Shown: one piece after another, positions 17,506 to 49,971 of the stretch
Layout of the letters: every line of letters begins with the position of its first letter
Position numbering within the stretch: position 1 is the first letter of the stretch
Source of the DNA: Hormiphora californensis
Taxonomy: Eukaryota > Animalia > Ctenophora
Direction of reading: 5' to 3'
Length of the DNA: 64,000 nucleotides
NCBI GenBank assembly: GCA_020137815.1
Contig: CM035350.1
Coordinates: forward strand, 8,804,001-8,868,000
Translations under genes and position numbers: made by a program
The notes under the pieces: model-generated
What the model was told of the DNA's origin: nothing
Databases searched by the model: none
Seen by the model: the letters and a program-made list of their open reading frames with translations, nothing else

Positions 17506-31491
<13,986 letters not shown>

Positions 31492-32262: not shown

Positions 32263-35200
32263 ATGAACCTTCCCCCTCGACTGAACACCCTTGCAAACTC
32301 AGTCACTACTCGTCAGAGTCCTCTGTTCCACGCTCTTCAGTGTTTCTTCGACAATGCAGTGTAAGATTAAACAACACAATATACACACTTGAAAGTGTAC
32401 TAACCTCACAACTATTTCAGTGTCGAATCTTTTGTCCACGCATCGAAGACCGGTGCAAAGAAAGCTAAAGTCTTTCTAGCTGTGCTACTCGTTGTCAAAG
32501 GTAACTAAATTAAAACTATTTTTGGTCCAAATGAAAATGTAATCGATAATTTTCCAGTGAAAGAGCAGAGCCAGGCTTATTTATATCAAGTCAAGAAAAT
32601 GGACAGCATCAAGTCACCATTCCAGGTACCGCTTGTAGTTGCCAAGTTAGACTGTTTTTCGTGCGTCTAAAGGGAGGGTTAGAACATAACAAGCTTGTAG
32701 TAGGTAACATTACGAGTCACAAAGTCAATATCGATTTATTTTCATGTAAAACATAGTTTGAATCTACAGCCCTTTCCTTGTTAGGTGAAGGCCAAGTTTG
32801 AGCTCACAAAGCTCCGATTGGTTAACGGTGTTAGTGAGGGAGATAATGAGATTGATATTGTGCTGGACTTTGAACGGGCGAACAACCACACTTTAAATCT
32901 GAAATGGAGTATTGATACCCCACAAACTCGGCGGAATTTCCTTATCTCCCTATGGAAGCTAGTGAACGAGTATCCCATGACAAACCTACCCCAGTTCCTG
33001 AACATCAACTACAACCTACTCCAGGTAGGAGCGACTATATTTCTTAGCTCCTGAATATCAGTCTTTTTTAAAGAAAATAACGAGTCCTGTGTAGCAGGGA
33101 GAGGGTGAAAACTCTACCGAAGGCCAGGTCGTAAGTTCATCTGTTGAACACTCTTCTCTACATTCAGCACCTTCCACTTTATTCATTTTACTCGATGATT
33201 TGTGTGTCTTTCCTGATCTTAGCCCTCTTTTAAACAAACCCATAAAATACAATTCATGTCACAGGACTCCCTGTCGCTGTCCAAGACCCTGAAGGAGGTT
33301 GGATTGTTAGGATCACCGGTCCTGGACCAAGGAGCAGAAACCCGGGAATACAAGTATCTCACGGGGGAGGAAGAACATGATTTAGGTAGGACAATGTTGT
33401 ATCACGCACAATTGTAACTATTAATCCAGTTGTCAGGCACTGACTGTAACATTCCGAACGCTGCCTCACGCATACGGTCTCACGCTGCCTCACGTAGCAG
33501 CTCACACTGTTTCCAGGTTTGGTGACACAGGGAGTTGATTGGTCGGTGCACCGTGCTGAGGACTTTATGGAGCGACTAATGAACGAGTTATCGGGGTTAA
33601 CCAAGGCTAACATCCATTCTATAATGAGTGTTGAGAATGATGTTGTGAGACTGTTCAGTATAATGGATCACGCTCTACATGAGCTGTGCAGGTGAGATCG
33701 AATTCACTACTAGTATAATCATTAGACACAAGGTAATCACTAGTTTAACATGTGGCAATCACTAGTTTAACATGTGGTAATCACTTGTTAAACATGTGGC
33801 AATCACTTATAGCCTATCATGTGAATAACAGGTTGTACAGTACAAGTGATCACTAAAACATGCCTCTCTCCCTCAGACTGGAGGATATCATGGTTGATTA
33901 CGAGGACAGATTGAACACAGACAGGTACGAGATAGAGGAAAGTCTCCACGCGTACCAGTCGCAGCACATCAGGAATGAAAACAGGGAGAAACTAGTGAAC
34001 TGTGTGTCCAACCTCACCGAAATGGTCTCCATACCATACGAATGCAAGGAGGTAATCACCAGTCTACCACTGAAGACAACAGCCCAGGTTACCCGCATCA
34101 GAGAGGCTGTAGATGTGGTCCAGGCAAAGGCAGAAGAGTGCAGGAACAGCCCTCTAGCGGAGATGGAGTGTGTCAGGGAGGCTGCGGACAGGATGGATGA
34201 TATTCTCAGAGAGTGAGTGGGGTGATGTGGTTTATAATATTCCTCTCGGTATAACCCTGCAGTAAAGAGATAAGCTTCCGTCCAATTCACCACACACCTG
34301 TCACAACTTCCCCCCCCCCCCTCAGGTTTAGTGATAGATTGTTTGAGACCATGTCAGAGATAACATCTCCAACGTGGAATGCAGCACAGTACATTCGACA
34401 CTCTAAACTCCTTCACCTCGCACCTGTAAGTACATTGAGAGATATGGGAGAGAAATATGAGATAGATCATACATTTTTTCGGGTTCAAGGAGCGGTTCAA
34501 AGTTCTCAATTATTGTATGCATACAAAGTAAATAGATGCCGTTTTCTGATGCGAATAATTAGATCACTCATAATAAGGGGTCACAAAATACATCGATCTT
34601 CTAGATCATTTTCAATTATCAACATCTATTATCACTCTGATTGTCCTTTTTTACAACTGTCCTGTTTACATTCCGATGTGTCCTTCTTTGATAATATCTT
34701 TATCTTTAGGATCTCCCTGCAGCTCCCAGTTAACCGGTTCATAATCCCTGGCCTTGAGATAGGACGCAGAGCCATGTCCAGCATCACTGCTCATCTCCCA
34801 GACCACTGGATCCTTGCTCCTCCTCACCCTCATTCGGAAGGCGGTCGGTTTCTTCTCGCACACACCTCCGTTAACACCTTCAGCTGCAGCCTTTCCAGTC
34901 AGATCGCTCTTCAGGAAGCATGCGCTGGTAAGGGATTTAGCACTGCCGGTAATGGTAGAATCAGCAGATAGGAGAGCTTTGGCAGCCTTCTTGTTGGGGA
35001 CAAACATGTACCCTTCGCAGGTTTCAGTAGCGGTACAGGAGTCTTTGCAAGCCTCCAAATTAGCGGCACTAGAGGTGGAGAGGGTGTTACCGATTAGAGC
35101 CTGGTCGGATAAATCAGACCATTCACAAGCAGCCTCCTCTTCTTCATCATCATCTTCTGCTTTTCCATCGGCAAACCCTGCTGCATACCCCTCTTTATAT

Positions 35201-38200
35201 CCCCTCTCGTAATCACTGCTGGTATCATCATCATCATCATCATCATCATCACCATCATCTTTCTTTTCACATTTGATGTACCCAGAAGCGCAGTTGGCCT
35301 CTTCCTTCTTTTCATATCCCTCAGTCTTCAACCAACAGCTGTGCCACCACTCAGTACTCTTCAGATCCTCATTATCGACCCAACTGTAAGCGACGCAGGT
35401 ATCTGTTTCAGAGCACCTCGCCTCGCATTCTGTCCTGGTGTCTTGGGGTGAATTCCTTCCATCCACTAGGTCGTTGCCATGGTAACAGTATGAATCGTCA
35501 GGAACATAGGAACATATCTCCCCGTCGTTACCATCGTTACCATCATCATCGTTACCATCATCGTTACCATCATCTTTCTTTTCGCATTTGATGTACCCAG
35601 AAGCGCAGTTGGCCTCTTCCTTCTTTTCATATCCCTCAGTCTTCAACCAACAACTGTGCCACCACTCAGTACTCTTCAGATCCTCGTTGTCGACCCAACT
35701 GTAAGCGACGCAGGTATCTGTTTCAGAGCACCTCGCCTCACATTCTGTCCTGGTGTCTTGCGGTGCATTCCTTCCATCGACTAGATCATTGCCATGGTAA
35801 CAGTATGAATCGTCAGGAACATAGGAACATATCTCCCCGTCGCTACCATCATCATCATCATCATCATCATCATCTTCATCATTACCATCGTTACCATCAC
35901 TTCCCTCGCCGTTACAGGAGAGATCAGCGATGTATCCGGAGTTAACATTAGTATCATCCTTCTCCTCATATCCACTCTCCTTCAGCCAACAGCTCTGGTA
36001 CCACTTTCCACTTCCAGCGGCGTGGACCCAGGAATATGCGACACACTTGGAGTTTTCCAGACACTTCGCTGCACAATCTTCCTCACTCTCCAAAAGTAAC
36101 TCCAATCCATTCACCAAATCTGCCCCATGGAAGGCTTTGTTGGCGGACTTTGTGAAATCACAAGTTGTCTCTCGCTGGGATGCGGCCTCCTCGGCCTCCG
36201 TGACCTGGATCGAGGAACAGGTATTCCAGATTTGGGGAGTTTGATCGTTATCCCATCTCCATGACAACACATACTCACCCAAAGCAAGATCCCTCGGCAC
36301 GACCACCTTGTCCACGACTGCCCATTTGAAGACATTGCTGATTCCCTTGTAGGTGATACTGAAGCCCTTTAGACCGGGGTAGGGAGGTTCGAACTGGGTA
36401 CCCGCTGGACAGGAGTTATCATCATTTAAGAAACCACCATGATCATACTCACAGGCAGGAATGGGGTTAACCCTCCAGGTAGATCCAGCAGGGACGGTAC
36501 CCACGTTGGTGTCTTTAGCAGCTATCGGCTTCCAATCTGCCTCATTCTCAGTCCAGGCAGCCCACTGGACAGACCCGTAGAACTTTAGGGGTGTCTCCTG
36601 GAAGCATTCCTCGGTCACCCCAGCCCTTCCGGCAGAACCAACCTTGCAAAGTCGATACTGGTAACCGCCACCGTGGTTTGCAGACAGAGTGTACGCGGTA
36701 TTCTGGACACTACCCCGGGGCCAGTTAGTTGTGGGTACATCCCTGTCGGAGTAATACTTTTCAGCATAAGCCCCGTAGGAGTGACCTCCCCCGGTGCAGT
36801 CTTTGTTGACTTTGTTCCCCACGGGGCATCCCTCAGGGTTCCCGCCAGACACCCCACACGGACTGTACACTTTAGCGGTTCCAGGAGCCCCCCACGGGTT
36901 CCTCTGGGACACTTGGTGAGTTGCAAAGGTCCTCATTTCACTCCTCAGAGTGATATCGCCCGGGATGGTGGTGTAGTTGTTGTACCACTGCAATACACAG
37001 CTGTTCTCAACACCCTCGGAAGGGTCATTCCGGCCGCACCCGATAAATCCACCGTGGTTTAGGTACATGTTGTGGAATTTGAGGCCGACGGAGGAGAAAT
37101 CCTGGAAAACTGGCGGGAAAATCATGTTGCCATGGCCAGTTACCATGGGAACCAGCAGGAGGACAAAACATAACATGATGTCGGGAGAAATAAAACGTCG
37201 TGCTACTGCTATAACAGATGTTGTATTTATAAAGGTGTAGAACAATGGCTCGACGGTAGATCTATATTCTTAGAATAGCTTGGTGGTAGTAGTGGTAGAC
37301 GCCCCTGCTCCTATTCAAAAGGGGGGGGGGGGTGGTCTTTGTTGCTCGCCAGTCACATGAGGAAAGGTGGGGTCTGTGACAATTGTGGGCCCTCAATTGA
37401 GGGACCCACGTCCCTAGAATAAAACCACCGCCCACCATGCCTGCTTTTATGTACAGACTTTGAATAGGAGTCCCATTCAAAAGGCCAAGTAGCAGCTAGT
37501 AGTATATTTCCATTGTTGAACCACCACGTACGGCAACATTGTTCAATAATGGAAATATAGCTTAGTGACGGTGGGGGACATTAATTCAAGTTGAGCTGGA
37601 GAATTACGTTATATCGGTTGAGACGTTGAGTATTGGGACACAGTTCTTTATATAATCCGAGTTGGAAATCAACAAGTTCCGAGCTCTTCCGTGCAGATCC
37701 ACAAGACCACAGCTCTATAATATTACAAACCTTTGTACCAACCAGGTATTGCTCAATCACTGTTTCCTCTTTGGAGATCTTTGGGAAACAAAAAGAAAGT
37801 GTACCAGGAAAAATTATAGATGTCGTACCACGTTTTCCTTTTTGATAGGACGAAACGCGTTCTATTTCAGCTGCAGCACATCGTACATGTATGTATCCGG
37901 GTCCCCATACCTCTATTGTCCAATTCAGCTGCTCTCGGCCCATAGCTTCCCATTGACTCTGTAATTCTTCCCCTATTTCCCCTCTTTTCTTCCTCTCTTT
38001 CACCTACAGATACATCTCGAAAAGAACGTCTGTCACGTGTAAAACTTCCAGATGAGGAATTGAAAAGTGTAGCTGCTAGATTCTGTTGGGTTCTCTTTCT
38101 TCTATCGTCCTGCGCTGTCTCTCTCTCATGTTTTCTCGCACGCTACGTTTAATTCGGGATGGGGGCGAGTGAGAAGAGAGGGGACACTGTACCCAATAGA

Positions 38201-41200
38201 TTCTGCTGCTAAGAACATATAAGAACAGCTGATCCTAGCCGCTGTTAGGAACATGCACTCATGCACTTCCTTCTCGTCTGGAAAGGCCCTAAAATCTCTA
38301 TACATAAACACAACCCCTTGTCATACCACGCACCTGTAATATGCATACGCTGTACCGTTTGGAGAGGGAAGTCGTTTGGGACTCAAATAACCTCTAAATC
38401 CCTTTCATCTCAGGCGTTGTATTGGCTTCATGGATATGATAGGAAAATGTTCGATGATCTCTCCGGAAGGTATTTATGGTGCCGTGGTTGTTTTTTAACC
38501 CCAATATCCCCCCCAGTAGGCAGTATCCCATCATTTGTTAACCCTGCCGGCCGCCCCAAATGACCTGTCAATTGTTAATCCCGCCCCCAATATCCTATCA
38601 TTAACATTTCCCAGGTATGTAGAGACAGCCCAGACCACCTACCAGACTGTCCTACAAGAGTACTTCAACGACAAAACTTCAGCAGTCACCAAGAAATCTG
38701 CCGACAAGCTGCTGTCTAAATTCAGTTCCAATCCCAAGAAATCTGACCTGGCGATTAGCCAAAAGATGATGACCTCCAACAACCTGATGATCGCATCCCA
38801 AGTCTCCATGGCATCCAATACCTCCCTGGACTCCATCACGTCTGGCAGGTCGGATCAGGAGGTGTTGGCTGTGGGCCAGGGTGGCAACCAGTTCGAGGTT
38901 CTTGTCAGGGAGGCCCTCGACTTTACTGAGATGTCCATGGAAAAGGAGGAACAGTTTGTTGAAAACTTCTTCCGGGAGACCAAGACACCCAGAGAGAGAC
39001 GAGATCTGGTGGAGATGATATTGTGTCGGTTTGGATCTCAATGGGACGACTTTGTCCATACCAGCTGCAAGTTTGATATCTACTACTCATTGCCAATCTT
39101 CCTGAGCTTGCTAGATAAACTTGACAATTTATCCAGGGAGAGCTTCGCATTTGCAGTTTTTAGGAAAAACCTGGATGTCGCTAATGATTATTTCAACAAA
39201 ATGTACAAGGTATAATTATGGCTGTAAACTTCAACATTTGTTAGCAACCTATTTTAGTAATATAATTTAAATTCTTTGAAGTTTTGTACAAACTTGATGG
39301 TGATCAAAAAATCCTATTTTTTTAGCAACATAAAACCAAGATACTGGAGGTGAATAAGAAGTTAATTCGTGGAACTCTTGCAAGTGTTTTACATTTTACC
39401 CAATTTCTTCTGTTTTCTGAATCTCTCCAGAGAACTACAAAACGCAACTCAATAGGTGAGGTGTTTAGATACACATTATATATGTCGAGTCTCGCAGTCT
39501 GTGTATACTGTATTAACAAGAAATGATGTATGTGTGTGTCACCATGTGTAATGTGATATGTAATGATAATGTAACTATGAATGATTGCATGTTGCTACAG
39601 ATCAGTGTTACATTCAACTCTCCAACGCTGTCACGGAGTCCATTGATTCCTTTGCTGGCCAACAAACCAAGGTACATGCAATCAATTGATAAAATGCTGC
39701 TGCTTTAATCAATCAATTGATAAAATGCTGCTGCTTTAATCAATCAATTGATAAAATGCTGCTGCTGCTGGAATGTTGTCAATGTGTTATACCAGCTGTG
39801 TTAAATTAAACAGAGTTTTAGTATGTGTACCATCTTCATGTTCCTATCTTCCCCTAGCTGCCTGTTGAGGTCGTTATTGTGGAGAATTACCACTTTATCT
39901 ACACGTTCCTACTGAAAAACAAGATAGAGAGTCTCGACAAATACCGATCGGTGAGTGAGGAAGGTTCCCCAATCAGGGCTCTATCCTAGTAGCAGGAATC
40001 AGGGCTCTATCCTAGCACCTCGAATTAAGGCTCTATCCTAGCACCTCGAATTAAGGCTCTATCCTAGTAGCAGGAATTAGGGCTCTATCCTAGTAGCAGG
40101 AATCAGGGCTCTATCCTAGTAGCAGGAATCAGGGCTCTATCCTAGCACCTCGAATTAAGGCTCTATCCTAGTAGCAGGAATCAGGGCTCTATCCTAGTAG
40201 CAGGAATCAGGGCTCTATCCTAACACCTCGAATCAGGGCTCTATCCTAGCACCTCGAATTAAGGCTCTATCCTAGTAGCAGGAATTAGGGCTCTATCCTA
40301 GTAGCAGGAATCAGGGCTCTATCCTAGTAGCAGGAATCAGGGCTCTATCCTAGCACCTCGAATTAAGGCTCTATCCTAGTAGCAGGAATCAGGGCTCTAT
40401 CCTAGTAGCAGGAATCAGGGCTCTATCCTAGCACCTCAAATCAGGGCTCTATCCTAGTAGCAGGAATCAGGGCTCTATCCTAGTAGCAGGAATCAGGGCT
40501 CTATCCTAGCACCTCGAATCAGGGCTCTATCCTAGCACCTCGAATCAGGGCTCTATCCTGGTAGCAGGAATTAGGGATCTATCCTAGTAGCAGGAATCAG
40601 GGCTCTATCCTAGTAGCAGGAATCAGGGCTCTATCCTAGTAGCAGGAATCAGGGCTCTATCCTAGTAGCAGGAATCAGGGCTCTATCCTAGTAGCAGGAA
40701 TCAGGGCTCTATCCTAGCACCTCGAATCAGGGCTCTATCCTAGCACCTCGAATCAGGGCTCTATCCTAGTAGCAGGAATCAGGGCTCTATCCTAGTAGCA
40801 GGAATCAGGGCTCTATCCTAGCACCTCGAATCAGGGCTCTATCCTAGCACCTCGAATCAGGGCTCTATCCTGGTAGCAGGAATTAGGGATCTATCCTAGC
40901 ACCTCGAATCAGGGCTCTATCCTAGCACCTCGAATCAGGGCTCTATCCTAGTAGCAGGAATCAGGGCTCTATCCTAGTAGCAGGAATCAGGGCTCTATCC
41001 TAGTAGCAGGAATCAGGGCTCTATCCTAGTAGCAGGAATCAGGGCTCTATCCTAGCACCTCGAATCAGGGCTCTATTATTTTCAGCCAGTTTTCACAACT
41101 CCCTTGAATACAAGAACAAATTAATAAATCTTTGAAATTTGAACCCTTTCTAGTTTTGCCACAAGAGATATAAAGACAGTCTAGAGGAGTATGTTAAAGC

Positions 41201-44118: not shown

Positions 44119-47100
44119 TCACGCCTGGCCTCGTTTCTTTCGATATTTCAGATCGTTCGCTTCGCCCTGTTCCTTACTCAGGAATCCCATAATTTCATTA
44201 ACCTTCCTCTTCCTTGCCTTATCAGAATCTGACTGATCTTTGTGTTTCAGTCTGTTTATAAACTTGCTGTCCTTCCTTATCTCCCTCACTGCACCCTTCA
44301 TCTCACTCTTGATCTTCTTCTTCAGATGTGTAGTCTCGTCCTTCGTCTTCCTCTCTCTCACCCAGACCTCACCAAACTTGGGCTCGTACATTTTAATACT
44401 GACAGGTTTGTTGTTCTCATAACGGAGGAAGGGCATAGTTTTCTGGCTATACTGTTGGTGAAGGGAGGACAGAGTAGATATGAGGGATGAACAATCAGAG
44501 TGGGCCTGAGAGGTGTCTATCGACTGTAGGGACTGGATCAGAGAGTGGAAGACACCGGAAAATCCTGTGTAATCGTGGTAGCTGCGCATAGCAGCACGAA
44601 TTGTACACAGGAGGCCGTAAAGAACATCACCGCCAGGGGTGTCCTTGGAGTGGAGAGAGGTAAAGGAAAGAGGCTGAGGTCTCGTCCCTGCCTCCGATGT
44701 TAGAAGAGAGGATTTGAAAGAGAAATTGGAGACATACTCACAACTTTTACCCGCTACCCGGTGCACGGTTTGTGATAGGAAATAGACAGCATCGGGAGAA
44801 TAACGTCCTTTAGAGATACGGATTATAAAATTGCAAATGTACAGGCCTAACTTGAGGTCTGCGATGGTCCTGATACCACATGTGGACAAGGCCCACCCTA
44901 GGACCATTAAAACAGGAGTCAGGATAGGATGTTTGTAGTCTGTTACTGGGTACAGCCGTTCCATCAGGTACAGATAGATGATATTGCGTCGTGCAAACAC
45001 CCCTGAAAGGCTCTTACCCCCGGCAGTTTCCACTGTAACTTTTAGGGAGTTGAAGAAGTCAAAAAAGTGTGTATAGACGTGACGGGCAACATGTTTAGTC
45101 AGATTAAACAGCTCGAGAGTAACTGATTCTAGGAGCTGCCTGGTCAGTGTTCCCTCCGTGTACCGTTTTGCAAGATACTTAATCAGCAGCACATACAAAA
45201 CTGCCGTTTTGCCTTTATTATCCTCCTTGAGTGTAGGGAAATTGGAGGCTATGATTCGTTTGATTATCGTCACCTTGATTCCATCATCCCGAGATCCAAA
45301 TAGTTCCACTAGGTCGGTGTAGTGTTCTGGAGCCTCGATTACAAAGGGAATATCTTGGTTTTTACCACTCAAATCAGCATGTTCCTCCTGTTCCACTTCC
45401 TCTCCTCCCTCATCATCATCATCTCCATCATCCTCAGCAACTATCTCGTCTTCAAACACACAGTTGTCTTCCAATGCCTGCACAGAAATGCAAAGTGAGT
45501 GTATGCGCGCCGCAGAAAGCGCGCGAAAATGAGTGTACTTTGCAAGAGTTAGAGTTGTGTGGAGAATGTTGTGTGGCATACCTCACTGATCGCTGGCAGT
45601 GGACCTGTTTCCTTTTCTTCATCAGATTCCTCTTCTTCTTCTTCATCATCACTTGCTTCTTCACCTTCTTCTCCCTCCCCTTCACTCTCCTCGCTCTCTC
45701 CGTCATCACTATCCTCCTCACCGCTCTCTTCTTCACTGTCTTCTTCACCTGGGAATATCAAGTAGTGGACAAAACTTGGAACAAGATGCCAACTATGATC
45801 ATGTATCCTATCATTGCAGTTATTGCGACCGTACTTTGCTCAGCGTTTTTATTCGCCAGGGATTCCACAGCATCGTCAAACTCTTCATTTTTGTTCATTT
45901 TCCCCGATTTATCATAACTAATCATTATCTTTTCCTTCTTTTTCATGGCAGTTTTGGATAGTAATGCATCTGCTGAACCATTCTCAACGTCCCCTGAGGA
46001 TCCTTTTTGGGTCCGGGCCACCCTCTCAGCCTCTAACCTCTCTAACAACTCTCGTCTCTCCCTGAAAGAAGTTTATTATATGTTCGCAAAAGGCAAGCTT
46101 CCCCTCGTCCGACCCGAAGTTGGAATCATATGGGTTTAGTTTGTCGAACCGGCAAGTTGCTAACATGTTTCAAATCTTCACTACTTCTCAAATGATCCCA
46201 TACTTTCAGTCTAATCCCAAAATCCTATTAAAAATAGAGACAAAAATAACGGCACCAAACTGTGAAATGCCCTTGCATTAGTGCGAGTAGAATAAAATCA
46301 ATTTTCTATCTAAAGGCCGAGTTTATAGCAAGAAAGGACTATTTTACAACGAATTCTCTGGTTAGTATGGTAACCAACTCCGTTGTCATGGTAAATCAAT
46401 CGAACTCTATCGAGTTCTATCGCCAGCAAATGGATGAAAATTTATCCATTTCATTATGCACAATGCACAGGCTTTGGTTACGAAGTTACCCCTTGCCAGC
46501 GTGTGCACGCGAAATTGGTGCAGGGGCAAAAGTTTTAATTGATTATAGTTAATTAACTAATTAGAAAATCAAAAATCCGGCTCCGTTATGACTCGTAGTT
46601 ATACTACTAGAACATACATGCAAAGTTTCATTTCGAAATTTCAAACGGTGTGGCCACAGTTTGAATATCAAAGTTGCAAAAAATGTGCAGGGGCAAACAA
46701 AATGGTGCAGGGGCAAATGTTCAGGGGAAAATTGCACAAATTGTGCAGGGGCAAATTTTAATTAATTTGCCTATAATTAATTACCTAATTGATATATTAA
46801 TCATACGGCTCTTCTAGTACTCGTAGTTATGCTACTAGAACATGCATAGAAAGTTTCGTGTCAAAATATTAAACGGTGTGGACACAGTTCGATCGCAATT
46901 TTGGTGCAAGGGCAGCCCCTGAACCATTTGCCCTTGCACATTGCCTGCCCCTGCACCAAATTCCATTTTTTGCACGGCTCTAACTAACTAATTAATTAAT
47001 TTTGACTATTCCCACTTTTCGAACATCATCTTTTATGATTGAAGAACATTCCTACAAAGTTTCAAGTCGATATTTTAAGCAGAACGGAAAATAGAATTTG

Positions 47101-48929
47101 GTGCAGGGGCGCGGTGCAGGGGACAGAACACGCAATGTGCAGGGGCACGGTGCCCCTGCACCATTTTTAATAACCTATAATTAATTAATTAATTAAAAAT
47201 TCAAAAATCCGCCAACGTCATGACACAAAGGAATACTACAAGAACATGCCTACAAAATTTCAAGTCGATATCTCAAACGGTGTGGCCACAATCGTTGACA
47301 TGTTTTTTTGCCCCCCCCCCCCCCCCAAAAAAAGACTTTTCTTTGTTCTTAATAGGGCCGGCATTTTTGGGTTTTTGTGCAGGGGCAAAAAATTTTTTTT
47401 CTTTTTTTCGTTTTTGCTGTTTTCTTCGGGTCGGAGGTGCCTGCCGGCACCTAAATAAAGAAAGTTATTCTGGTTGATATTTTGGGGGTTACTTTATTCA
47501 ATTCTGCGATATGAGTTGGAGTCACTACTACTGACTCAGTACTCAGTAGTCACTACTACTTTAACGGTGGGCGGACTCTAGTGCTAACGGACTCTATATC
47601 TAAACCCAAGGAGGACTCTATATCTAACCCTAACCTTCACACTAACCCCTAACCTCGAACCCAAATATCAGCCCTAACACTTCTAAACGAGTATAGAGGC
47701 ACAGCAAACTCTCGTTTCCGGCCTAACGGCCGAAATATCGAGTTCGCTTTTCGTGATTTTAGCACTAGATTCCGCTTACCTACTTTACTTTAATTACTGA
47801 CTCTCTTACTTGGCAAGCTCTTCCTCTGTCTTCAACCGATCGGTAGGTTTAGCCTTAGTTTCGAATATCAGTTCCCTCACAGCTGTATCATAGTCGTCCT
47901 TTGCCTTGGTCGGAGCAGGGGGCATGTTGTGAACTAGGATTCCCTGTAATTCCTTCCAGTCGTTATCAAGACCTGTAGTTTCCTCCATCATCGCGTCATT
48001 CTCCCTCTGTCTCACTAGCTGAAAGGGGGGGGGGGTTACACAGCTGGGTTACATCTCTCTGTTTCACTAGCGGGGGAAGGGGGGTTACACAGCTGGGTTA
48101 CATCTCTCTGTCTCACTAGCTGAAGGGGGAGGGGGTTACATCTCTCTGTCTCACTAGCTGAAAGGGGGGGGGGGGTAATATAGGATAAAGTTAAGAGAGG
48201 GGTTGGGCCCGAGGGATGGGCAGAGAACCTACTGCATTTAACTATCAATGATATAACAGCATCCTAAGCCTTATACCTTTTTCATTTTTGACTGAGCCAC
48301 CAGTTCCTCCATAAAATCCTTGCCGCTCATGTGTTTGCTGTCCTCAGATTTAGTAAGGAATCCTCCAAAATGCATGTCAGGTCCGTGCTGCCCCCTTGTC
48401 AGCCTCCTCTTCATCATCAGATCTGTACACGTCATCAAAATCCTCAATTTCATCGATATTCTGGCCCTTGTGAGTTAGGATATCTTCCTCATTTTCATCC
48501 AGATTAAACCGCTGTTTACTGTGGTGTTTTTGTCTCTCTACGGTGAACCTTGCCAACATCTTGTCCTCCACACTCAACTCTGTATTGCCCTCTCCAAACC
48601 TACCATCCACGAAGGTACTCTTCTTGTTTCGCTTCCTGTACTCCTGCCCCAGGGTCTTCTGTCTTTTTTCCAGGGCTTTTGATCGGGAAACACCCGGCAT
48701 TCCGGCCACTTTGCTGTCTTTAACTCCCAGGACATGGTGCTTCTTCTTCTTATGGTGTACCTGCAAGAGGGTGAAGAGAGAGATCATATATACAATTTTA
48801 TTATATTGAAGGGATGAATGAATCACAGAGACCAGAGAAGGAACTTGTTACCTCAAATGGATTAGTTTTCTTGGCTCCTATCTCCTTTTTCCTCTCCCTA
48901 GATTTGTCAACTTTACTCTTCTTGGCCAT
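44119..48929 (-). CDS. NOP14: Nucleolar protein 14 (one apparent frameshift near 48391-48395)
   Basis: TNPFEV, FVDGRFGE..EDKMLARF..RFNL..LTHKGQ, HFGGF, YDTAVRELIFETKAKPTDRLKTEEE, IPFVIEAP, YPVTDYKHPILTP, EMKGAVREIRKDSKF. Confidence 0.95.
46260..47560. mobile_element. Non-autonomous repetitive element in a NOP14 intron
   Basis: Many tgcaggggca motifs and about 200-bp diverged sub-repeats (tactagaacat..aaagtttc..aaacggtgtgg); 46473-46510 recurs inverted at 49431-49465. Confidence 0.5.
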
Positions 48930-49259: not shown

Positions 49260-49971
49260 TTAAAAACAGTCATCGGCCACATCCATACTGTAATACGGCA
49301 TGCCGCGGTCTTGGAAGGCTTTCTTTAACAACTTTTGCCGCTCCTCCTTTTCTTTCAATTCTTCTGCCTGAGGATCGGAACATTAACTATAACTTGGTAT
49401 CGAAGACACCTCACACTCTGTTTAGACCTTCGCGCGTGCTGGCAAGGGGTAACTTCGTAACCAAAATTATAACGCGTCAGAAACAGACATTTTGTAAACT
49501 ATGTAGTGCCGAAGCTGTCCAAAGGATACATTGAACATGTGGCCTGTCTGTCTCATAGTGTGCCAATAAAATAATTGTGTACCCCGCCGCAGATTAAACT
49601 GTGTGATTGTGTAACCGTCTATTATGTATACATATTGTTACCTGTATTTTGAGGATTTCCTCCTGCGATACTTGTTTAAGTTTCTCGAATCCTGGCTTCT
49701 GAAAGTCCGTCTCACCACAAAGCAGAACATTCTCGCCCCGTACCAGGAAGACACCCCTGTCTATATCTCCATACATATCTCTAACATGTATCCTCTCTAT
49801 CGTCTGGGTGAGAAGGAGGTTTGCAAACTGGTCGAGTGATCGGAGGAATCCAATTAGAGTCCGGCCATCTCGTAACACCACCATGACCCGCTTATCGATA
49901 TCTTGGACCAGGGAGGCAGTGCCCGGCAGGTAGAGCATCTCCTGCCCCAAATCATCCACCAGATTCGCCAT
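49260..49971 (-). CDS. LSM1: U6 snRNA-associated Sm-like protein LSm1, 2 exons
   Basis: YLPGTASLVQDIDKRVMVVLRDGRTLIGFLRSLDQFANL..ERIHV..YGDIDRGVFLVRGENVLLCGE; second exon 49367-49260. Confidence 0.97.

Follow-up and report, generated by a model that had tools for sequence, protein, structure and literature searches.

A ctenophore gene for a predicted LPMO-fold protein with tryptophan at the axial position and four PAN/apple modules

The gene, its transcript and its host genome

The window analyzed here is a 64,000-nucleotide stretch of the genome of the ctenophore Hormiphora californensis (contig CM035350.1 of assembly GCA_020137815.1, positions 8,804,001 to 8,868,000). On its minus strand, which carries every feature of the gene described below, a single-exon open reading frame (ORF; 37176-34666) encodes a protein of 836 amino acids in an unbroken reading frame. 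The protein comprises a predicted signal peptide, a catalytic domain with a predicted lytic polysaccharide monooxygenase (LPMO) fold, four PAN/apple modules, and a C-terminal tail. The domain belongs to a large family of marine eukaryotes in which His1, His154, Gln301 and Trp303 (numbered from the mature N-terminus) are conserved, with Trp303 in register with the axial Tyr224 of AA13 LPMOs. An original prediction had named a secreted LPMO-like enzyme at this locus, and re-reading the sequence showed its coordinates for His1 (37134-37132), His154 (36675-36673) and Trp303 (36228-36226) to be right.

The gene is transcribed, with both a 5′ end and a poly(A) tail found in RNA contigs from two environmental runs, X7 and X8. 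One X7 contig stops at 37201, giving a 5′ untranslated region (UTR) at 37177-37201, and carries there a 25-nt loose end that resembles a template-switch adapter, which we take it to be. A TATA-like box read from the sequence at 37224-37231 lies about 30 nt upstream of this end, and its position suggests its function. At the other end of the gene, an X8 contig carries a loose poly-T end preceding 34542, which marks a poly(A) site near that position, with the stop codon and 3′ UTR spanning 34542-34668. The X7 and X8 sequences are 90-99% alike and reach into 10 and 9 of the 30 bins, respectively, all inside the gene and none in its flanks; having been found with the gene itself, they are uninformative on expression level or tissue, and neither the absence of X8 contigs over most of the catalytic domain nor the X7 gap there carries weight. 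In DNA run X1, coverage extends to all 30 bins of the gene and its flanks. Runs X1, X5 and X7 contain nine extra nucleotides at 37172, which keep the reading frame and add three residues to the signal peptide of those alleles. We found no second copy of the gene within the 64-kb window.

The window is ctenophore DNA, since the neighboring spliced Nop14 gene (44125-48929, minus strand, recovered in six pieces against the Mnemiopsis protein) finds its best named match in Mnemiopsis leidyi at 59% identity, compared with 24-28% for named non-ctenophore animals. The LPMO-like gene itself has a PAN-bearing counterpart in M. leidyi (ACHWQZ_G004161), with 65% identity along the full length of the domain and four to five PAN copies, on a 14.9-Mb contig. 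Together, these matches bear out the animal origin first proposed. Contaminating DNA from prey or a symbiont, or a non-functional relic, could be suspected from the intronless state of the gene beside a spliced neighbor and from the many relatives that look like copepod or protist sequences. This explanation is already largely refuted, and we hold it to be very improbable: X1 DNA is continuous over the gene and flanks, the Mnemiopsis counterpart sits on a multi-megabase contig, ctenophore-like proteins form one long-branch clade (support 100/99), and the ORF and active-site residues are intact in a gene whose RNA contigs carry poly(A).

Predicted active site

The first 14 residues (37135-37176) form a predicted signal peptide, as judged by the hydrophobic character of this leader and by its residues at -3 (Val) and -1 (Gly). 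The residue preceding His1 is Gly, Ala or Ser in 201 of the 208 relatives with a recognizable N-terminus, out of 376 distinct family sequences. No further membrane-like stretch was seen in the 836-residue protein (highest 19-residue hydropathy 0.95). Cleavage is therefore predicted directly before His1, in agreement with the proposal of a 14-residue signal peptide that leaves a histidine at mature position 1. His1 (37132-37134) is predicted from sequence, conservation and model alignment to bind copper through its N-terminal amine and imidazole; histidine occupies this column in 163 of the 176 rows that reach it, and residue 1 of the structural model is aligned by VIA on residue 1 of both AoAA13 and TdAA15A. 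A further histidine, His27 (37054-37056, minus strand), lies in an H-G-G-F motif within a low-confidence loop (residues 15-30) and recurs in the four other ctenophore-like proteins whose N-terminus is present; it could serve as a second-sphere or additional metal ligand.

The second histidine of the predicted copper brace, His154, is found within ANHGGGYQYRLC at 36675-36673, in the triplet Ala152-Asn153-His154 (36673-36681) with Ala at His-2 as in AA10 and AA15. Both His154 and Gln301 are invariant in an alignment of 112 sequences, and across 263 rows the His154 column holds histidine in 259 and the Ala152 column alanine in 231. Profile alignment places His154 on the HGG loop of AoAA13 and on the A-x-H of TdAA15A, so the residue first picked out as the internal copper histidine coincides with the second-His loops of both families. 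Topology and alignment suggest a putative brace geometry in which His1 would lie next to His154 and an aromatic residue would be axial.

The axial residue itself lies in the last strand, Gln301-Ile302-Trp303 (36226-36234), with the second-sphere Gln301 at 36234-36232 and Trp303 at 36228-36226. In the profile alignment this strand matches the Q-I-Y strand of AoAA13 with no gap, placing Trp303 on the axial Tyr224. Gln301 is kept in 246 of 263 rows, and 12 of the remaining rows have gaps there. Of the 245 relatives whose last strand is aligned (18 rows were excluded as truncated or misaligned), 232 have Trp at the axial position, seven have Tyr, and six have Phe; the exchange of Trp with Tyr and Phe, the canonical axial residues, is evidence in its own right for this column being the axial position. 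Natural Tyr/Phe variants close to Trp-bearing members include P0050, P0052, P0063 and P0073. His1, His154, Gln301 and Trp303 occur jointly in 133 of the 161 rows complete at those columns, with 10 further rows having Tyr or Phe in place of Trp, and an AA13-like Q-T-x-Q loop is also conserved in the family. The invariance of His154 and Gln301 among 112 sequences, together with the Gly, Ala or Ser before His1, argues that these features exceed chance.

In sum of LPMO hallmarks, the window protein has at the level of sequence and model a histidine after the signal peptide, a second histidine in a loop, a β-sandwich fold, and a second-sphere Gln two residues before the axial position, which is occupied by Trp rather than Tyr or Phe. 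According to a 2024 paper, this position is Tyr or Phe in every LPMO (PMC11137697). The axial Trp of the original prediction thus stands as a conserved residue in register with AA13 Tyr224, but it is not peculiar to one animal, being instead the rule in a large family of marine eukaryotes. A characterized family in which Trp is routine, which that prediction had named as a test, was not found.

Fold and relation to known LPMO families

The catalytic domain (36199-37134; about 312 residues, including 10 Cys) is predicted to adopt an LPMO fold on the basis of an AlphaFold (AF2) model, VIA and Foldseek. The model of a 316-residue domain reached a predicted local distance difference test (pLDDT) score of 90.6 and a predicted TM-score (pTM) of 0.91, with pLDDT below 50 at residues 15-30 only. 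The best VIA match was the starch-active fungal enzyme AoAA13 (4opb; Z 15.1, root-mean-square deviation (rmsd) 3.2, 192 aligned residues, 20% identity), followed by the insect enzyme TdAA15A (5msz; Z 14.2, rmsd 3.5, 169 aligned residues, 18% identity), and other families scored lower (Z up to 11.5 for AA10, up to 9.5 for AA11, 8.0 for AA16, and up to 7.8 for AA9). All 50 VIA matches listed are LPMO-fold entries. Foldseek likewise ranked AoAA13 (4opb) first, with an E-value of 1.7e-6. By sequence alone, a 112-member profile recovered AoAA13 (E 1.6e-7), TdAA15A (E 1.2e-5) and two AA11 proteins (E 3.5e-3 and 0.027). A weak single-sequence match of the domain to a dGTPase (E 0.027) we took as chance, and a viral fold search returned weak matches only, at about 11% identity. 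Fold, profile alignment and conservation thus support an uncharacterized LPMO clade with an axial Trp, as had been proposed; the closest solved relative is AA13, a family absent from the earlier list of comparisons, roughly level with AA15.

Similarity to AA13 extends to the HGG loop at the second histidine, the ungapped spacing of the final strand, and the Gln at -2. The two differ in that Trp replaces the AA13 tyrosine, the domain is about 80 residues longer, Ala is found at His-2, PAN modules stand in place of CBM20, and the host is a ctenophore. AA13 enzymes are described as having an invariant Tyr224, a CBM20 appendage, and an ascomycete-only distribution (PMC4338556); all three are lacking here, placing the protein outside AA13.

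AA15 is structurally tied with AA13 (scores within one Z unit), and TdAA15A resembles the window protein in its A-x-H at the second histidine (Ala89/His91; PMC5823890), in being secreted, and in belonging to a family known from animals and algae. Ala at His-2 is thus shared, whereas family-level sequence similarity and an axial Tyr/Phe are not: only one profile stretch matched, structural identity is 18%, and the domain is more than 100 residues longer, in keeping with the earlier description of it as longer than and unlike the usual animal AA15. AA15 proteins are reported to have an axial Tyr or Phe (Thr in a tree legend) and to carry CBM1, CBM14, GH18 or GH19 appendages (PMC5823890).

The Pfam model LPMO_10 (PF03067) matches 68 of the 112 members at E ≤ 0.1, and its cut-off of 23 is passed by a minority of relatives, such as P0142 (30.3 bits) and P0156 (34.3 bits); some Atlas clusters of the family have been labeled automatically as "chitin-binding type-4 domain", the corresponding AA10-type name. 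LPMO_10 does not match the window protein, which so falls outside AA10. PF24320 (DUF7492) matches none of the 112 members at E ≤ 0.1, assuming that the model is present in the Pfam copy used. We found no description of the family in searches of open PMC and bioRxiv main text, which for the broad queries covered the top listings. It is probably an LPMO family without earlier description, outside AA10, AA13 and AA15. LPMO discovery screens have been filtered on an N/Q/E-x-F/Y motif (PMC5320794), which would exclude Trp members and may be why the family was missed.

PAN/apple modules and C-terminal tail

In the whole protein Pfam finds PAN domains only, with PAN_4 matching four stretches downstream of the catalytic domain (105 bits, cut-off 27; E 1.8e-30). 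Module 1 (35905-36156) matches both PAN_4 and PAN_1 and weakly resembles kallikrein apple domains (E 0.047). Modules 2 (35572-35823) and 3 (35257-35508) are identical at 83 of 84 amino acids and 242 of 252 nucleotides, marking module 3 as a recent tandem duplicate with a 315-nt period. A linker rich in Asp and Glu (35122-35256), whose short Gly-Tyr repeat segment is kept in Mnemiopsis, leads to a divergent module 4 (34849-35121). Ctenophore-like relatives have between one and five PAN modules. In the Mnemiopsis-type relatives P0303, P0266 and P0123, the last approximately 220 residues contain a domain of about 170 residues in place of module 4; it has no Pfam match, and by eye we presume it to be akin to a discoidin or F-type lectin fold.

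The protein ends in a furin-type R-x-R-R site, where processing may occur, followed by a 50-residue tail (34669-34830). A dibasic site and similar tail are also present in P0303, P0266, P0123 and P0003, and the tail is possibly a cleaved pro-peptide or a sorting signal. A complex prediction for the idea that the tail caps the active site scored 0.02, which speaks neither for nor against it. The tail has repeated D/E-P-V/I-x-W-E motifs and a terminal G-H-I, and is alike in Mnemiopsis-type relatives.

Extensions of more than 50 residues past the last strand occur in 58 of the 232 relatives in which that strand is intact. Pfam scans of longer relatives covered two selected sets of 30 and 31 sequences, partly overlapping, and among these we found PAN-like modules in five non-ctenophore-type sequences, along with single cases of ShK, a CE4 deacetylase (P0209), rubredoxin (P0308) and a PQQ-type propeller. 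The claim that PAN/apple modules take the place of carbohydrate-binding modules (CBMs) therefore holds for the four Pfam-supported stretches here, with the amendment that some members from outside the ctenophores bear PAN-like appendages too.

Family distribution and origin

Relatives of the domain made up 238 of 670 candidates of similar length and 7 of 1025 longer candidates. Clustering at 50% identity gave 1990 representatives at E ≤ 1e-3, 804 at 1e-10 and 139 at 1e-30, and the best 150 of the 1990 were inspected. Among JGI metagenome contigs there are at least 587 true relatives (587 of the 600 pattern matches listed). Atlas clusters are eukaryotic, mostly Haptophyta and also Cercozoa and Ascomycota, with few labeled members and recognition scores below threshold. 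Motif-pattern scans confirmed none of 24 viral-contig candidates and none of 18 GTDB prokaryote candidates; these scans needed exact motifs, so that absence is not proven. Named members include proteins of the copepods Acartia fossae and Neocalanus flemingeri.

Leader sequences gave further clues to the hosts of environmental relatives. Judged by eye, two of 80 loci have leaders that we take to be diplonemid-like and five have leaders that we take to be dinoflagellate-like; the exact 12-nt dinoflagellate leader was found in none of the 80. Locus L066 starts with the calanoid spliced leader as printed in Table 1 of PMC4664967, from which we conclude that some of the copepod copies, at least, belong to the animals themselves. 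The family has members in Mnemiopsis and calanoid copepods, and probably in several protist groups. Separately, seven contigs (L019, L026, L029, L030, L033, L036 and L047) have in common a 5′ leader, in its first 20 nt, and fall in one nine-row clade with a Shimodaira-Hasegawa-like approximate likelihood ratio test (SH-aLRT) support of 99; their leader is possibly the spliced leader of one eukaryote lineage.

To place the ctenophore proteins, we used trees of hand-chosen subsets with midpoint rooting, in which two ctenophore-like relatives (P0303 and P0304) were identified by name and the others grouped by similarity and tree. Ctenophore-like rows form a single clade in a quick 132-row tree (eight rows, SH-aLRT 100) and a single long-branch clade in a more careful 51-row tree whose bootstrap had not fully settled (six rows, 100/99; no supported sister). 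Transfer from copepod prey was considered and set aside: nine transcripts lie beside the ctenophore clade in the quick tree (SH-aLRT 97, on long branches), and the careful tree gives that clade no supported sister. The gene is not recognizable among the nine Mnemiopsis transfers in Table 3 of PMC6005172. Close relatives on ENA contigs of 33-864 kb are also single ORFs, as is the intronless gene here. This intronless state fits, without proving it, the insertion long ago of a copy that came from an mRNA or by transfer.

An active LPMO could remodel the animal's or protist's own extracellular glycan, such as copepod cuticle, protist scales or theca, or ctenophore matrix, instead of food. AA15 enzymes are described in such developmental roles in arthropods (PMC5823890), and members of the present family are found in many lineages with polysaccharide coverings of their own making. 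The literature searched yielded no statement on whether ctenophores synthesize chitin, and PMC3942024 does not mention ctenophores. Overall, we regard remodeling of the host's own glycans as improbable.

Proposed function

We favor, with moderate confidence drawn from sequence and modeled structure, a secreted, copper-dependent and H2O2-driven polysaccharide-cleaving enzyme of an undescribed LPMO family of marine eukaryotes. In this mechanism, one copper would be held in the His1/His154 brace and, with H2O2 or with O2 and a reductant, would oxidatively cleave a food polysaccharide. Gln301 may position H2O2 as in AA9 and AA13, consistent with the role described for second-sphere Gln/Glu in orienting H2O2 (PMC11137697, PMC12186267). 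Trp303 would lie under the copper, probably without coordinating it, as is the case for the Phe of AA10; being oxidizable, it could be where a protective hole-hopping path starts, and Trp radicals have been seen in other LPMOs (PMC12186267). Ala152 may shield the other axial side of the copper. PAN modules on acidic linkers would anchor the enzyme on glycans or on the surface of prey, and the tail past the furin-type site may be removed.

Several observations weigh against cleavage activity or the assignment itself. Some LPMO-fold proteins, including X325/Bim1 and some AA16 members, are not known to cleave polysaccharides. In a single-sequence search, the window protein matched no LPMO Pfam model and no LPMO sequence in the PDB, and its Foldseek TM-scores against LPMOs are modest (0.35 by query, 0.47 by target), which we attribute to large insertions in the domain. 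No known CBM was found by Pfam among the 30 and 31 selected relatives, and the fusions to CE4 and to rubredoxin, each seen in one record, could be assembly chimeras. Finally, Trp is bulkier than the Tyr or Phe that PMC11137697 states for LPMOs, and could distort or silence the site.

A rival reading is a different kind of copper-binding LPMO-like protein, one that does not cleave polysaccharides and acts as an H2O2-producing oxidase or a copper scavenger or carrier in defense, mucus or adhesive chemistry, with PAN modules for attachment. The non-canonical axial residue, the lack of a known CBM in the scanned window protein as well as in the selected relatives, PAN/apple arrays of one to five copies that suggest an adhesion-like role, and the X325/Bim1 and AA16 precedents would all suit such a protein. 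Against it, the family keeps both the catalytic Gln and the AA13-like Q-T-x-Q loop, the closest structural matches come from AA13 and AA15, which are active families, AA16 reaches only Z 8.0, and one member is fused to CE4. On balance we judge a non-cleaving copper protein unlikely.

Returning to the polysaccharide-cleaving enzyme, our judgment on its substrate, if active, favors chitin of crustacean prey, a tentative choice short of an even chance. Chitin leads because the animal is a predator of crustaceans, because Ala at His-2 resembles AA10 and AA15, and because one relative has a CE4 fusion. Cellulose or another β-glucan seems unlikely, an α-glucan such as starch or glycogen slightly more so, and any other substrate least likely of all. 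We retain α-glucan on account of the AA13-like final loop; Diplonema is described as using amylopectin with enzymes not identified (PMC10161547).

An active LPMO family with Trp as its default axial residue would, if confirmed, reveal an unrecognized oxidative breakdown of polysaccharides in plankton food webs and supply a natural test of the axial aromatic residue. What the axial Tyr/Phe does in LPMOs is debated, with copper tuning and protective hole hopping as the competing proposals, and a Trp family with close Tyr/Phe variants would make the question directly testable. From sequence and model, we see about an even chance that this is the first active LPMO family with Trp as its default axial residue, spread over copepods, comb jellies, dinoflagellates, diplonemids and haptophytes and missed through the N/Q/E-x-F/Y filter. 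An active family would bear on marine chitin and glucan turnover and offer a source of new biocatalysts. The gene would also bring an LPMO to ctenophores, for which we found none in the literature searched.

Neighboring features of the window

Pfam scans of seven neighboring ORFs identified no carbohydrate-active neighbor. Scans of the surroundings placed an LSM-domain gene at 49594-49971 (minus strand), rotatin exons at 30865-31491 (minus strand), and a weak Sec3 coiled-coil match at 33860-34216 (plus strand). An intronless ORF of 334 amino acids at 20791-21795 (plus strand) has no Pfam match at E ≤ 1, contains several hydrophobic segments, and resembles a seven-transmembrane receptor. Upstream of the LPMO-like gene, at approximately 38070-38220, lies a short element of very high depth that is missing in some alleles and is probably a small mobile repeat.

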